Translations under genes and position numbers: made by a program
The notes under the pieces: generated by a model
Told to the model about the DNA's origin: nothing
The model's database searches: none
Seen by the model: the letters and a program-made list of their open reading frames with translations, nothing else
NCBI GenBank assembly: GCA_964567205.1
Contig: CAZMKW010000001.1
Location: forward strand, 1 to 48,832
Length of the DNA: 48,832 nucleotides
Origin: an uncultured Candidatus Saccharibacteria bacterium
GTDB lineage: Bacteria > Patescibacteriota > Minisyncoccia > Minisyncoccales > Staskawiczbacteraceae
Direction: 5' to 3'
Part shown: positions 28,814 through 31,916 of the stretch, piece after piece
How positions within the stretch are numbered: the first letter of the stretch is position 1
How the letters are laid out: every line of letters begins with the position of its first letter

Positions 28814-28840
28814 AAAAAAACCTCAAGACGTTGCTCGAGG
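28814..28840 (-). terminator. Intrinsic terminator downstream of 28866..29099
   Basis: Minus strand reads CCTCGAG-CAACGT-CTTGAGG (one mismatch) followed by T7. Confidence 0.6.
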
Positions 28841-28865
28841 CGTTGATATCTTGGGATGATATCTA

Positions 28866-29099
28866 TTAGTTTTGCAACTGGGGTCGATGTTTTCTTCGAC
28901 GCATTTTTTTACTGCTAATATTCTTACGTGGATCTCTCCACTTCTTATGAACTAACCTTAAGCTTGGGCAGCTTCTTCTAAAACAATCACTACAAACTTT
29001 TTTGTCCGGAATCCGTTGTCCATTCTTTTTGCAAATCCCAATTACCATTCCATGGCTCCCTTGAAAAGAACAAATTGCAATTATCTGAATTAACTCCAT
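28866..29099 (-). CDS. Hypothetical small Cys-containing protein with a very basic C-terminus, divergent from the sigma factor gene
   Basis: 77-aa ORF with CSDCFRRSC and the tail KKMRRRKHRPQ. It has a terminator downstream and a divergent TTGACA promoter upstream, but no clear RBS. Confidence 0.4.
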   Translation of the reverse strand: MELIQIIAICSFQGSHGMVIGICKKNGQRIPDKKVCSDCFRRSCPSLRLVHKKWRDPRKNISSKKMRRRKHRPQLQN

Positions 29100-29135
29100 A
29101 ACTCAAGCTAATTTCAGATTACTGCTCTATATTTT

Positions 29136-29178
29136 TTGTCAACACTCACCTTGACAATCTGAGCCAAAAAGATAGAAT
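29136..29178 (+). promoter_or_regulatory. Divergent promoter region; sigma gene promoter TTGACA-16-TAGAAT, with an inverted TTGTCAA/TTGACAA pair
   Basis: TTGACA is at 29151-29156 and TAGAAT at 29173-29178. The inverted copy at 29136-29142 gives TTGACA on the minus strand. Confidence 0.6.
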
Positions 29179-29257
29179 AATTACAAGCACATTGAAATGT
29201 AAATAAGTGTTTTACACAGAAGCTCGGGAAGGCAATCTCAATAACAAAGGAGGAGAG

Positions 29258-30226
29258 ATGACTATATTAGCAAGTGCACCCAAAAAACAAAGAGCGAGAA
29301 CTGTTCTTCGCCTGAGTGAAGAGGAAAGGTTGCTTTACAAAACGATCCCACAGAATATCTTTTTTGTTTGGCACCCCCGCTTTGACGAGCCAACCATAGG
29401 AAAAAGCCTCTTTGGTCCAGATGCGGAAATTATCCGCATCCAAAACTGGGTCGCGCCAGCAACGATAAGAGATGAAAGTACGCCAAAGCGTAAGCGGACA
29501 AAAACCCTAACTGGTGAACAGCAGACAACTTTGTTTCTCCGATACAATTATGCGAGTTATCGACTTAGCATGCTGACAAAAAAGCAAGAGAGACATTTCT
29601 CTCTTTCTCGCGTTCGCGAAATGATAGCGTGGCATCAACGAGCGTTATCTGCAAGAGCGGATCTCGCAAGGGCGAACTTGGCGCTCGTTCTGGCGATGGC
29701 AAAAAGATCCAAGTTCGAAGGAGTTCCATTTGATGAACTCGTTTCAGAAGGTAATATGGCCCTGTTGCGCTCTGTTGATAAATTCGACGTATCAAGAGGA
29801 TTTAAGTTCTCGACTTACGCGTGCAGAGCCATAATTACAGCCCTACGGAGAATATCCAGCCAATATTGGCGCCATCAGGAGCGTTTTCCGGTAGAATTTA
29901 ACGTCGATGTGGAAAAACCGGAAAAAGACTGGGAGAGGAAAGAAGAGATAAGAATAGCCCATAACACCGGGTTGGTACGCAAAATACTAGAAACAAATCA
30001 AGCATGGCTTACCGATCTTGAACGAAAAATCATAGACGAACGGTTTTTTGCCAGCGACGGCAAAAAAAGAACGCTTGCCGAAATCGGCTTGTCGGTCAAG
30101 CTTTCAAACGAAAGGGTACGCCAGATATTAAATGTGGCGCTTATAAAAATTCGCGCTGCACTTGAACGGAGCATGACCCAAAAAACAAGAAGGTCGCCGG
30201 CCTTTTACAAAACCATAGGCCAATGA
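29258..30226 (+). CDS. Sigma-70 family RNA polymerase sigma factor, divergent region 2.3-2.4
   Basis: Region 2 reads [12 protein letters not shown]...[38 protein letters not shown]. Region 4 reads [29 protein letters not shown]. The start is at the ATG with an AAAGGAGGAG RBS. Confidence 0.85.
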   Translation: [322 protein letters not shown]

Positions 30227-30236
30227 CATTAAACGA

Positions 30237-30271
30237 GGTCCCCTAATAGATAGCGAACGGGGATTTTTTTT
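30237..30271 (+). terminator. Weak intrinsic terminator after the sigma gene
   Basis: TCCCC/GGGGA stem with a 15-nt loop, followed by T8. Confidence 0.4.
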
Positions 30272-30324
30272 GCATTGCCCTTTCTAATAAAACTTGGTTT
30301 TGCTATAATAAATTAAACATAAAT

Positions 30325-30744
30325 ATGAAAAAAATAATTTTTACCTTTTTAGTAATAATTCTTATTTTTTTAACAGCCTGGCTCTGCCTAATTTTATTTA
30401 ACAGATACTATACGGCACCAGAAATTAATATGACAAATAAAATATCTAAGAACGAAGGCTCGACCAAAGATTTTATGCAAGAGTTTACCATAAGAAAAGG
30501 GGAAACAATTGAAATAACTAACGGCCCAAAAATAACTTTTAAAGAACACTCTCATAAACGCACATCAGAAGAACAAGAATCCCCTCTTGTTGTTTATATA
30601 GGATACACAGCAGAAAACGAATATCACAGTGTTTACCCTGACGCCAATGGAAGTTTTAGCTGGCAGTGGCGTGATTATAATTTTTTTGTAAGTGATTATG
30701 GGTACGACAAATATATGACAATGAAGGTTGGTAAAATACCATAA
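30325..30744 (+). CDS. Hypothetical membrane-anchored protein
   Basis: 139 aa with an N-terminal TM segment. Its composition is AT-rich, unlike its neighbours. Confidence 0.6.
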   Translation: MKKIIFTFLVIILIFLTAWLCLILFNRYYTAPEINMTNKISKNEGSTKDFMQEFTIRKGETIEITNGPKITFKEHSHKRTSEEQESPLVVYIGYTAENEYHSVYPDANGSFSWQWRDYNFFVSDYGYDKYMTMKVGKIP

Positions 30745-30756
30745 TAAAAAACTTAA

Positions 30757-30785
30757 AAAACTTCGCTTTCTGCGGAGTTTTTTGT
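30757..30785 (+). terminator. Intrinsic terminator
   Basis: AACTTCGC-TTTCT-GCGGAGTT (one G-U pair) followed by T5. Confidence 0.6.
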
Positions 30786-30868
30786 TGACAAAAACAATGG
30801 AAGTAATAGCATAGAAATTAAGGGGGTTCCTTCACAACAAACTAAACCTCAAACATAGGGAGATTGAT

Positions 30869-31069
30869 ATGCCATATAAACGCCTTAGTAACGAAAAGCT
30901 GCGAAAACAAATAATCGAGCTTATCGGCCTGGGCTATACCGATAGCACTAATTCTAAGCTTAGTGCTTTGAGCACCGAACAAGCACGAAGACTGGCGCGT
31001 GGCCAGTCTGATTCCTGCCCAGCCATCGCGCTTATTAGGTGCGAACCCGATATGCTAGGCGACTGGTAG
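30869..31069 (+). CDS. Hypothetical small protein
   Basis: 66 aa. An AGGGAGA RBS lies 6 nt upstream, with a TTGACA promoter at 30785-30790 and a strong terminator directly downstream. Confidence 0.55.
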   Translation: MPYKRLSNEKLRKQIIELIGLGYTDSTNSKLSALSTEQARRLARGQSDSCPAIALIRCEPDMLGDW

Positions 31070-31094
31070 AGCGAGATCCGTCTCGCTTTTTTTT
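31070..31094 (+). terminator. Intrinsic terminator
   Basis: AGCGAGA-TCCG-TCTCGCT followed by T8. Confidence 0.8.
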
Positions 31095-31117
31095 GCAAAA
31101 AATTTGGCACGGTCAAA

Positions 31118-31146
31118 TTGATTTTATAAAATTTATATTATATAAT
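31118..31146 (+). promoter_or_regulatory. Sigma-70-like promoter
   Basis: TTGATT, 17-nt spacer, TATAAT. Confidence 0.6.
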
Positions 31147-31210
31147 ACAAAATTGTTAGTTTGTTCTTTGAGTTGGATCGTTCCCATACACACATTGAAA
31201 GGAGTAAACA

Positions 31211-31513
31211 ATGTTGGGAAGAAAAATATTTCACGTTATGCATCGTAGAAGAATAAGGAGAAGGGTGAGAAAAGAAGTACGCGTTGCAATAATGGATAAA
31301 TTGCGAATAATGTTCCAGCGCGTAGATCCTTTCTTCGATGGTCGCGCCCGCGTCTGCCACAATGACGAATGGTTTCACGTCTGTTGCGGCACACCAGCCT
31401 ACGAAGAAAAATACGCATATGTAGGGAATTTCTCCGGAGGCCGCGCCAATGTGTTAGACAGAAGTGGCAAATGGTTTGCCATCAACCTCAACGGAAAAAA
31501 ATCACACTTTTAA
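31211..31513 (+). CDS. Small protein with an Arg-rich N-terminus and WG-repeat-like C-terminal half
   Basis: GAAAGGAG RBS. FDGRARVCHNDEWFHV and FSGGRANVLDRSGKWFAINLNGK resemble WG-containing (KWG) repeats. Confidence 0.5.
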   Translation: MLGRKIFHVMHRRRIRRRVRKEVRVAIMDKLRIMFQRVDPFFDGRARVCHNDEWFHVCCGTPAYEEKYAYVGNFSGGRANVLDRSGKWFAINLNGKKSHF

Positions 31514-31531
31514 CACGAAGGGAATCGTAAA

Positions 31532-31843
31532 ATGGTCATAACGATTTACATTGTCAGAACACCGGGAAGATTTGAATTAAGAGTACGGCACGGCTCATCT
31601 GCAACTTTTGGCAGTACAATGGGTGCACCAAGTTATGCTAGAAGCATAAAAGCGCTAGCCCACTCTGTATTGGGAGCAGTGATTGAACATAACAACGGCG
31701 ACGAATTTATGTTTTCCCCCGATGTTCCGGCAGAGCTCGAAGCAGAACAACCGGGAGCATTTTTCCCGCTGACCGGCGACAACTACAGTGCTGCGAGACA
31801 AGTCTTCAACGCATGTCCAAATATACAACATATACGATGCTAA
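31532..31843 (+). CDS. Hypothetical protein
   Basis: 103 aa with a GAAGGGA RBS, starting 19 nt after the upstream gene. A terminator follows. Confidence 0.55.
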   Translation: MVITIYIVRTPGRFELRVRHGSSATFGSTMGAPSYARSIKALAHSVLGAVIEHNNGDEFMFSPDVPAELEAEQPGAFFPLTGDNYSAARQVFNACPNIQHIRC

Positions 31844-31854
31844 TACATCACTAT

Positions 31855-31881
31855 AGCCTTGCGACCCAGCAAGGCTTTTTC
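31855..31881 (+). terminator. Intrinsic terminator closing the plus-strand island
   Basis: AGCCTTGC-GACCCA-GCAAGGCT followed by TTTTT. Confidence 0.8.
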
Positions 31882-31888
31882 TTTTAAT

Positions 31889-31916
31889 CAAAAACCACCT
31901 CTCGGCGGTTTTTTTA
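31889..31916 (-). terminator. Terminator downstream of rplU (also hairpin-competent on the plus strand)
   Basis: Minus strand reads AACCGCC-GAGA-GGTGGTT (one G-U pair) followed by T5. Confidence 0.55.

Follow-up and report, generated by a model that had tools for sequence, protein, structure and literature searches.

Region 2.4 of sigma-70 factors reads the upstream part of the −10 promoter element, and the group 3 factors of this family (sigma-28/FliA, Bacillus SigF/SigG/SigB, and RpoH) lack one or both residues of the tryptophan (Trp) dyad. Planctomycetota genomes hold an uncharacterized family of short sigma factors whose members are annotated only as 'sigma-70 family RNA polymerase sigma factor'; NCBIfam contains no model specific to this family, and a literature search found no paper on it. 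Here, we describe a gene of this kind in the candidate phyla radiation (CPR, or Patescibacteria), where genomes are tiny, transcription regulators are very few, and an imported extra sigma factor is a large change in regulatory capacity. The gene lies in an island (positions 28814 to 31916) of a 48,832-nt stretch of DNA from lake-water metagenomes (contig CAZMKW010000001.1, our contig C1), which we refer to in its entirety as the window.

The genome to which the window belongs comprises 559 kb in 44 contigs and is 86% complete; its 60 nearest species genomes are all 0.3 to 0.9 Mb where completeness is high. We consider it likely that the island gene encodes a functional alternative sigma factor that was acquired horizontally from the Planctomycetota, from a family centered on the Phycisphaerae, and that now sits in a hypervariable slot between prmC and rplU. 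The gene is intact, is under purifying selection, and has a promoter of the housekeeping type. On this reading, the locus would represent a clean transfer of a sigma factor between phyla with an identified donor clade. It would also be a natural experiment: the specificity helix of region 2.4 would have been rewritten, with the parts that bind the core, melt DNA, and read the −35 element left in place.

Architecture and classification of the sigma factor

Pfam analysis of the predicted protein revealed matches to region 2 (PF04542; 47.4 bits) and region 4 (PF04545; 38.2 bits), both above the Pfam cutoffs of about 24, in agreement with a sequence-only reading of this DNA that had described both regions as clear. 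No match to region 3 (PF04539) or region 1.1 was obtained in the same scan. From the N to the C terminus, an extension specific to the family is followed by a region 1.2-like segment, region 2, a short linker, and region 4. The only NCBIfam model that passes is the superfamily model TIGR02937 (score of 61 against a cutoff of 42.9). Region 2.3 reads FSTYACRAI, with CRAI in the place of TWWI, which confirms that the Trp dyad is gone. The minimal region 3 and the altered region 2.3-2.4 are therefore real traits; they are not peculiar to this gene, however, as the earlier description 'divergent' implied, but are common to the whole Planctomycetota family.

Translation most likely starts at the ATG at 29258, behind GGAGGAGAG, which gives a protein of 322 aa, rather than at the GTG at 29207. 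The start at 29258 is used by the gene callers in four other assemblies. An AlphaFold2 (AF2) model of the protein, with a predicted local distance difference test score (pLDDT) of 80, matches sigma-A chains in the PDB, and residues 210 to 221 form a low-confidence linker in this model. Profile and fold searches placed the protein nearest to group 1/2 sigma factors for regions 1.2 to 2.3 and region 4. The N-terminal extension (residues 13 to 75; window positions 29294 to 29482) has no Pfam match and contains the conserved residues Y27, P31, V37, F42, L51-F52-G53, and W64; its residues 21 to 60 are modeled at a pLDDT of >90 with little regular secondary structure.

The protein does not fit neatly into any of sigma-70 groups 1 to 4. 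Like the group 1/2 factors (SigA/RpoD, RpoS, and actinobacterial SigB), which are its best matches for regions 1.2 to 2.3 and 4.2, it keeps the core-binding residues of region 2.2 and the E/R/R/Q residues that read the −35 element. Unlike them, it is without regions 1.1 and 3, W433/W434 are changed to R/A, and Q437 and T440 are replaced. Assignment as the group 1 primary factor (RpoD/SigA) was rejected, given a score of 97 bits against a cutoff of 354 for the RpoD_Cterm model, no PF04539 match, no WW pair, and a canonical RpoD encoded elsewhere in the genome (392 aa, after dnaG on contig C7, reading FSTYATWWIRQ). This RpoD groups in the tree with RpoDs of Saccharimonadota, Peregrinibacteria, and 'Patescibacteria group' organisms. 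Group 3 was rejected as well. Its members are alternative factors of similar size, but they carry a sigma-3 domain, which was not detected in the window protein; the RpoH and sporulation-sigma models score far under their cutoffs, and no group 3 NCBIfam model passes. The extracytoplasmic function (ECF; group 4) factors, which span about 170 to 220 aa and usually have an anti-sigma gene transcribed with them, share with the window protein the layout of sigma-2 and sigma-4 domains with a short linker, and TIGR02937 passes. Unlike them, the window protein is ~120 residues longer at the N terminus (a 130-residue part that includes a region 1.2-like helix), lacks the FxxWLxxIARN motif, is most similar to groups 1/2, and has no adjacent cognate anti-sigma gene, none having been found. 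The genome's own ECF factor is encoded on contig C11 with a membrane protein as its neighbor. The presence of separate RpoD and ECF factors and the sporadic occurrence of copies bear out the earlier suggestion that the island gene is an accessory, nonhousekeeping regulator of foreign origin.

Planctomycetota relatives and divergence after the probable transfer

More than 100 homologues of the sigma factor were found, at 46 to 58% identity over about 90% of the length; nearly all are ~312 aa, and those with a named source belong to the Planctomycetota/Phycisphaerae. In a scan of one genome per prokaryotic species, the ~35 best full-length matches were all from the Planctomycetota. Like the members of this family (e.g., that of Planctomycetes bacterium SM23_25; 45 to 53% full-length identity), the window protein has the same architecture, the shared motifs SEGNxALxRxxxKFDxxRGFxFSTYAC, FP, and NERVRQI, no Trp dyad, and no region 3, and 61 of 61 family-invariant residues are present in it. 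Unlike them, the window copy resides in a CPR host, is AT shifted, is remodeled in region 2.4 and the linker, and lies in a variable slot, whereas the gene in the donor phylum is a stand-alone chromosomal gene among housekeeping genes. No conserved neighbor was found among 37 Planctomycetota loci, the second-largest cluster of neighbors being antisense open reading frames (ORFs) of the sigma gene itself. Of 201 Planctomycetota genomes drawn evenly, about 11 contain strong members of the family and about 21 others contain a sister form of ~570 aa. A true RpoD (361 to 367 bits) is encoded in addition to the family in Phycisphaerales genomes, where the family is thus an alternative sigma factor.

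In maximum-likelihood trees, the family forms one clade (support of 100%), and it is into this clade that the window protein falls, not among the housekeeping sigma factors of its own lineage. Within it, the window sequence groups with P0002 and P0003, two CPR copies from metagenomes (support of 100/99), and these three fall together with Phycisphaerae sequences in a larger supported set (95/94). Monophyly of the Planctomycetota to the exclusion of the CPR copies was rejected by the approximately unbiased (AU) test (p = 0.008). The CPR copies are thus nested inside the Planctomycetota family, which argues that the gene was imported; one to three transfers into the CPR are possible. The transfer is also a possible ecological pointer, to an association of this uncultured lake Parcubacteria lineage with Phycisphaerae.

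The G+C content (GC) of the sigma gene is 45%, compared with 37.9% for the genome, where only 7% of 1-kb windows reach 43%. A GC above that of the flanks and closest protein relatives in another phylum could also arise if Planctomycetota DNA had been joined chimerically to a CPR contig during assembly or binning, but such an artifact is scarcely credible here. The same DNA is present in 4 other, independent assemblies and 13 runs at 99.8 to 100% identity, with identical junctions. Within its 48.8-kb contig the gene is flanked by CPR genes to the left and right, its 45% GC is far under that of the GC-rich upstream DNA of Planctomycetota loci (as read from their sequences), and two related CPR lineages have diverged copies beside the same PIF1 helicase gene.

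Among the 60 relatives, copies of the sigma gene were found only in one genome of the same genus (G019) and one of the same family (G028). Both lie between HtrA and ClpB, a site that is empty in G012 and G006. The two copies (G019:C6, 5569 to 7304; G028:C3, 3241 to 4095; our loci L124 and L125) are immediately upstream of clpB and in the same orientation, and the HtrA-ClpB gap varies across the genus, from 255 nt in G012 to about 5 kb in G025. We considered this adjacency as a sign of a heat shock role and kept the idea as speculative: ClpB is a core gene (present in 25 of 26 genus genomes), the HtrA-ClpB gap is another variable slot, and the window copy does not lie near ClpB. No ClpB orthologue was found in the window's own assembly, probably because ~14% of the genome is missing.

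Intact sigma ORFs are present in five CPR lineages, and the ratio of nonsynonymous to synonymous substitution rates (dN/dS) between CPR copies is 0.18 to 0.25. Retention of family residues in the CPR copies is 85 to 92% in region 2.3 and 63 to 74% in regions 2.1-2.2, and the recognition helix NERVRQI of region 4.2 is intact. Region 2.4 and the turn that follows it are 90% conserved in the Planctomycetota, but only 25 to 30% of this segment is retained per CPR copy, and the three CPR copies differ from one another in it; retention is also poor in the linker and the N-terminal extension. From these patterns we infer re-specification of −10 recognition, or relaxation there, with −35 reading conserved. 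A transferred gene that is unused and drifting, with the loss of region 2.4 as the first sign of decay, would show the same poorly retained segments together with a sporadic distribution and a raised dN, which in the sigma gene is about 5 times that of the neighboring PIF1. We nonetheless regard a decaying passenger as unlikely: the ORFs are intact in all five lineages, dN/dS is about 0.2, every family-invariant residue is retained, and the promoter, leader, and Shine-Dalgarno sequence are conserved in three lineages above the level of the coding sequence.

As a functional factor of Planctomycetota origin, the protein would bind the CPR core RNA polymerase via its conserved regions 2.1-2.2, read a TTGAC-like −35 element via the NERVRQI helix, and melt DNA without the Trp dyad; without region 3, it would make no extended −10 contact. 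Since region 2.4 has been almost wholly replaced in the CPR copies, its reading of the upstream part of the −10 element would have been re-specified after transfer. The factor would then switch on a probably small set of promoters, under conditions set by its own transcription and leader and not by an adjacent anti-sigma factor.

Several points weigh against this reading. The synonymous divergence (dS) of the sigma gene is saturated (at least 1.8 for the window copy versus L005 and L022) and that of the flanking PIF1 gene is 0.88, a difference that simple vertical descent after a single transfer does not explain. By this measure the sigma alleles seem older than the DNA that flanks them, a pattern that points to the replacement of alleles or recombination within the slot, or else to a rate that is raised locally. 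The change in region 2.4 could reflect relaxed constraint instead of retargeting, and GC richness by itself is no proof of import in this lineage. The AU test did not reject a tree in which all five CPR copies are forced together (p = 0.16) and therefore cannot separate one acquisition from several. Lastly, no target promoter of the sigma factor was identified, and a search of RNA-seq runs found none holding the gene.

Promoters and candidate regulatory partners

The sigma promoter TTGACA-16-TAGAAT is present as had been described (Table 1). Its counterparts in two relatives are TTGATA-16-TAGAAT (L005) and TTGACA-16-TATAAT (L022), and across three CPR lineages the promoter and leader are kept more strongly than the coding region. 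An AUCUC/GAGAU pairing in the leader could enclose the Shine-Dalgarno sequence. The consensus fold of the leader is weak (−6.4 kcal/mol), and with three sequences neither covariation nor a convincing structure was found.

The punctuation of the island by terminators and promoters, noted in the sequence-only reading, holds: hairpins with T-runs follow sigma, orf139, orf66, and orf103, and further promoters precede orf66 and orf100-orf103. The island genes are organized as independent transcription units. All of the island promoters match the housekeeping consensus of the genome, TTGACA-N16/17-TAnnnT (47 copies with N17 and 25 with N16), and the proposal that the small ORFs form a regulon of the sigma factor is therefore not supported.

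Table 1. Features of the island and its left flank, in window coordinates
Feature	Position	Strand	Evidence
41-nt perfect palindrome (19-bp stem), followed by a T-rich run	28762..28802	+	Fold of −34.8 kcal/mol, z = −8
Intrinsic terminator beyond the orf77 region	28820..28841	−	−10.3 kcal/mol, then U7
orf77, 77 aa (CSDCFRRSC ... KKMRRRKHR), probably no protein gene	28866..29099	−	Codon score, homologue searches
Sigma promoter TTGACA-16-TAGAAT, housekeeping type	29151..29178	+	Sequence; kept in L005 and L022
Sigma leader, ~79 nt, with GGGAAGG and AAAGGAG boxes	29179..29257	+	Conservation
Alternative sigma-70-family factor, 322 aa	29258..30226	+	Pfam, NCBIfam, tree, AF2 model
Weak sigma terminator (9-bp stem, 15-nt loop, U8)	30235..30268	+	−11.2 kcal/mol, z = −2.3
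Extended −10 TGcTATAAT for orf139	30301..30309	+	Read from sequence
orf139, N-terminal membrane anchor and all-beta ectodomain, HSHK...SPL...WxW motif	30325..30744	+	Homology, AF2
orf139 terminator	30754..30784	+	−14.9 kcal/mol, z = −4.6
orf66 promoter TTGACA-16-TAGCAT	30785..30812	+	Sequence
orf66, 66 aa	30869..31069	+	N-terminal 37 residues homologous to a 72-aa ORF of L004
orf66 terminator	31068..31089	+	Hairpin and T-run
Two overlapping promoter-like sites, TTGGCA-17-TAAAAT and TTGATT-17-TATAAT, for orf100-orf103	31104..31146	+	Sequence
orf100, 100 aa, Arg-rich N terminus and two WG beta repeats	31211..31513	+	PF14903, 25.8 bits versus cutoff of 25.6
orf103, 103 aa, orphan, Shine-Dalgarno sequence present	31532..31843	+	Codon score of 0.13, best of six frames
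orf103 terminator	31855..31876	+	−14.2 kcal/mol, z = −5.2
Bidirectional terminator common to rplU; right edge of the island	31892..31915	Both	Minus strand, −13.6 kcal/mol; plus strand, −8.9 kcal/mol

The form TTGACA-N16-TAGNAT occurs four times in the genome, two of them in the island; with only four copies, its candidacy as the cognate promoter of the sigma factor is a lead only. With N16 or N17 there are five such sites (C9, 17147; C14, 7854; C18, 9509; and window positions 29151 and 30785), each of which precedes a leader of ~80 nt; outside the hexamers the sites share no sequence similarity. The genes behind four of them are GC-rich (sigma, orf66, a gene on C9 that resembles PyrF, and an unknown gene on C18), and behind the C14 site is a small membrane ORF, in DNA whose GC (0.35) is ordinary. 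Reading the upstream regions of Planctomycetota sigma genes by eye revealed no motif, the start codons being uncertain and the sequences too divergent.

A more far-reaching version of the acquisition, which we find doubtful, would have the sigma gene captured repeatedly from Phycisphaerae (maybe two or three transfers, into two slots) that were hosts or close partners of these bacteria, with the −10 helix retuned to drive GC-rich acquired cassettes. Several GC-rich cassettes bordered by the 41-nt palindrome have TTGACA-N16-TAGNAT promoters and long leaders. If this version were true, the sigma gene would identify the phylum of the hosts of an uncultured Parcubacteria group and would illustrate how foreign genes are wired into a minimal genome.

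orf77 had been put forward as the partner or anti-sigma factor of the sigma gene, with its own terminator and served by an inverted TTGTCAA/TTGACAA pair at the sigma promoter. The terminator is present, but the gene is not supported. The codon score of orf77 (−0.05) equals the mean of spurious ORFs, it is matched or exceeded by 49% of spurious antisense ORFs, another frame scores better than its own, and it has no Shine-Dalgarno sequence. Neither a homologue nor an exact record was found in a collection of 15 billion proteins; the ORF is not called in four other assemblies (L103 to L106) and is absent in relatives L004 to L007 and L022. orf77 is probably not a protein gene. The inverted pair is probably due to chance, since it is not conserved in two relatives with the same promoter and no usable −10 element was seen on the minus strand. 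The minus-strand RNA of the region folds well (z = −3.5), which together with the good terminator leaves room for a noncoding transcript, and the orf77 region could be a remnant or belong to a minus-strand RNA of ~300 nt.

It is very unlikely that the sigma factor is sequestered by orf77 or by the membrane protein encoded downstream and controls the small ORFs as its regulon. The divergent position of orf77, with a minus-strand terminator beyond it, would suit such a module, as would the membrane-anchored gene that follows sigma in all three close CPR lineages and the concentration in the island of half of the rare TTGACA-N16-TAGNAT promoters. The evidence on orf77 and on the inverted pair given above stands against it, as do the housekeeping fit of the island promoters and the lack of any conserved neighbor of the gene in the donor phylum. 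orf139 has about 4 cytoplasmic residues and so cannot bind a cytoplasmic sigma factor. The sigma/anti-sigma module is accordingly not supported.

The prmC-rplU slot and its small genes

The order RmuC-L21-[0 to 9 kb variable]-PrmC-like methyltransferase is kept in 17 same-genus genomes, and L21 directly adjoins the methyltransferase in 4 of the genus genomes. The window from 22.8 to 31.9 kb is thus a hypervariable, lineage-specific slot between prmC and rplU, and the island is the right-hand third of it. The left border of variable DNA that had been drawn at 28814 does not hold, as the whole of the slot varies across the genus. On the rplU side, the island does end back to back with the rplU terminator, which is bidirectional; the block is not syntenic, and its genes were not found at this slot in any of the 17 genomes. 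Three close lineages (PIF1 at 84 to 92% nucleotide identity) retain PIF1 upstream of sigma with different fillers: the sigma promoter directly follows PIF1 in L022, and ~4.6 kb of other genes lie between them in L004/L005.

Two further observations were made in the left part of the slot. In a comparison at window positions 26653 to 28210, a population variant (contig in ERZ27248961, our L105) that is 99.8% identical elsewhere is without the PIF1 gene, the end of a low-molecular-weight-phosphatase-like gene and the same terminator (CCCTGCGTTAACTCGTGGGG) being joined at window position 28091. Ten of its 12 single-nucleotide polymorphisms cluster in the 3' end of the adjacent CYTH gene (28125 to 28209), nine of them synonymous, as would be expected for a recombination tract. 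The upstream segments of an 87-aa ORF (26439 to 26492) and of the CYTH gene (28693 to 28746), both on the minus strand, are 78 to 81% identical, are of the TTGAAA-17-TAAAGT type, and look like a duplicated promoter cassette.

A phage or other mobile origin had been suggested for the island, along with the statement that no phage or integration genes are recognizable. The statement is correct, and the suggestion receives no support. We therefore regard it as highly improbable that the island is a set of phage or mobile-element morons with the sigma factor as a takeover or defense factor, even though the small ORFs are individually promoted and terminated, the setting is hypervariable, and a PIF1/Dda-like helicase (phrog_325, 2e-62), a DEDDh exonuclease, and a CYTH protein lie nearby. 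Searches of 50,697 phage records, 72,556 plasmids, and IMG/VR yielded no member of the sigma family, the best match among viruses being partial and 38% identical; PHROG and PADLOC searches of the small ORFs gave no matches; and in the donor phylum the gene is chromosomal. A prophage or integrative element was rejected, as no integrase, tRNA target, flanking direct (att-like) repeats, or phage or conjugation genes were found at the island. An MZA antiphage system was also rejected: the sigma factor matches MzaA models via generic sigma regions only (86 bits against a cutoff of 800), and partner genes are missing.

The four downstream ORFs listed in the sequence-only reading (of 139, 66, 100, and 103 aa) are all present. 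We interpret these genes not as parts of a module with the sigma factor but as unrelated, ordinary accessory cargo of the slot with housekeeping-type promoters. orf139, which has a very short leader and no Shine-Dalgarno sequence, is a fusion of two genes that adjoin in relatives (119 and 224 aa): residues 1 to 38 share 68% identity with the 119-aa gene of L004, and residues 26 to 139 share 70% identity with the C terminus of the 224-aa gene of L004. Its ectodomain belongs to an uncharacterized family with 82 representative homologues. The AF2 model (pLDDT of 90) has no PDB fold match at E < 0.1, and no Pfam family matches.

The homologue of orf66 in L004, a 72-aa ORF, sits upstream of sigma. 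The two proteins align with a Smith-Waterman score of 66, against a maximum of 45 in 2,000 shuffles, and BLASTP between them returned nothing; all other matches in a homologue search were to orf66 itself. The promoter and leader of orf66 are 83% identical to those of the 72-aa ORF in L004/L005. orf103 is called in 5 contigs and has no homologue other than itself among 5.8 billion clusters.

The palindrome at the left of the island reads AAACGCCCC(A/G)TACTAGGC-NNN-GCCTAGTA(T/C)GGGGCGTTT, with compensatory stem changes between copies, which often have AAACGCGACC ahead of them and a T-rich run behind. At least six further copies are present in the genome (C3, 112 to 152, 4493 to 4533, and ~42085 to 42125; C7, 20401 to 20441; C9, 17099 to 17139; and C12, 1753 to 1793). 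Among the 60 relatives, only G012 has the palindrome (C12, 2634 to 2668 and 6588 to 6622; C22, 429 to 463), one copy being just beyond rplU, in the same variable slot. An Rfam scan of the island found no family at gathering or E-value thresholds, with subthreshold matches on this hairpin only, and the palindrome itself matches no Rfam family. It marks the left edge of a GC-richer block, and the right flanks of the copies on C1, C3 (112), and C9 are GC-rich (0.43 to 0.58), foreign-looking DNA. This lineage-specific element probably terminates or insulates PIF1 read-through.

orf100 is a short paralogue of a 158-aa WG-repeat protein encoded on C7 (17543 to 18046; tblastn E = 2e-6), which scores 85.8 bits for PF14903. 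That protein (GC of 0.49) forms a GC-rich pair with a 98-aa ORF (GC of 0.46) at C7, 17531 to 18598. A 98-aa ORF that lies upstream of sigma in relative L004 shares 61% identity with this one, which indicates that small accessory genes move between loci in this species group.

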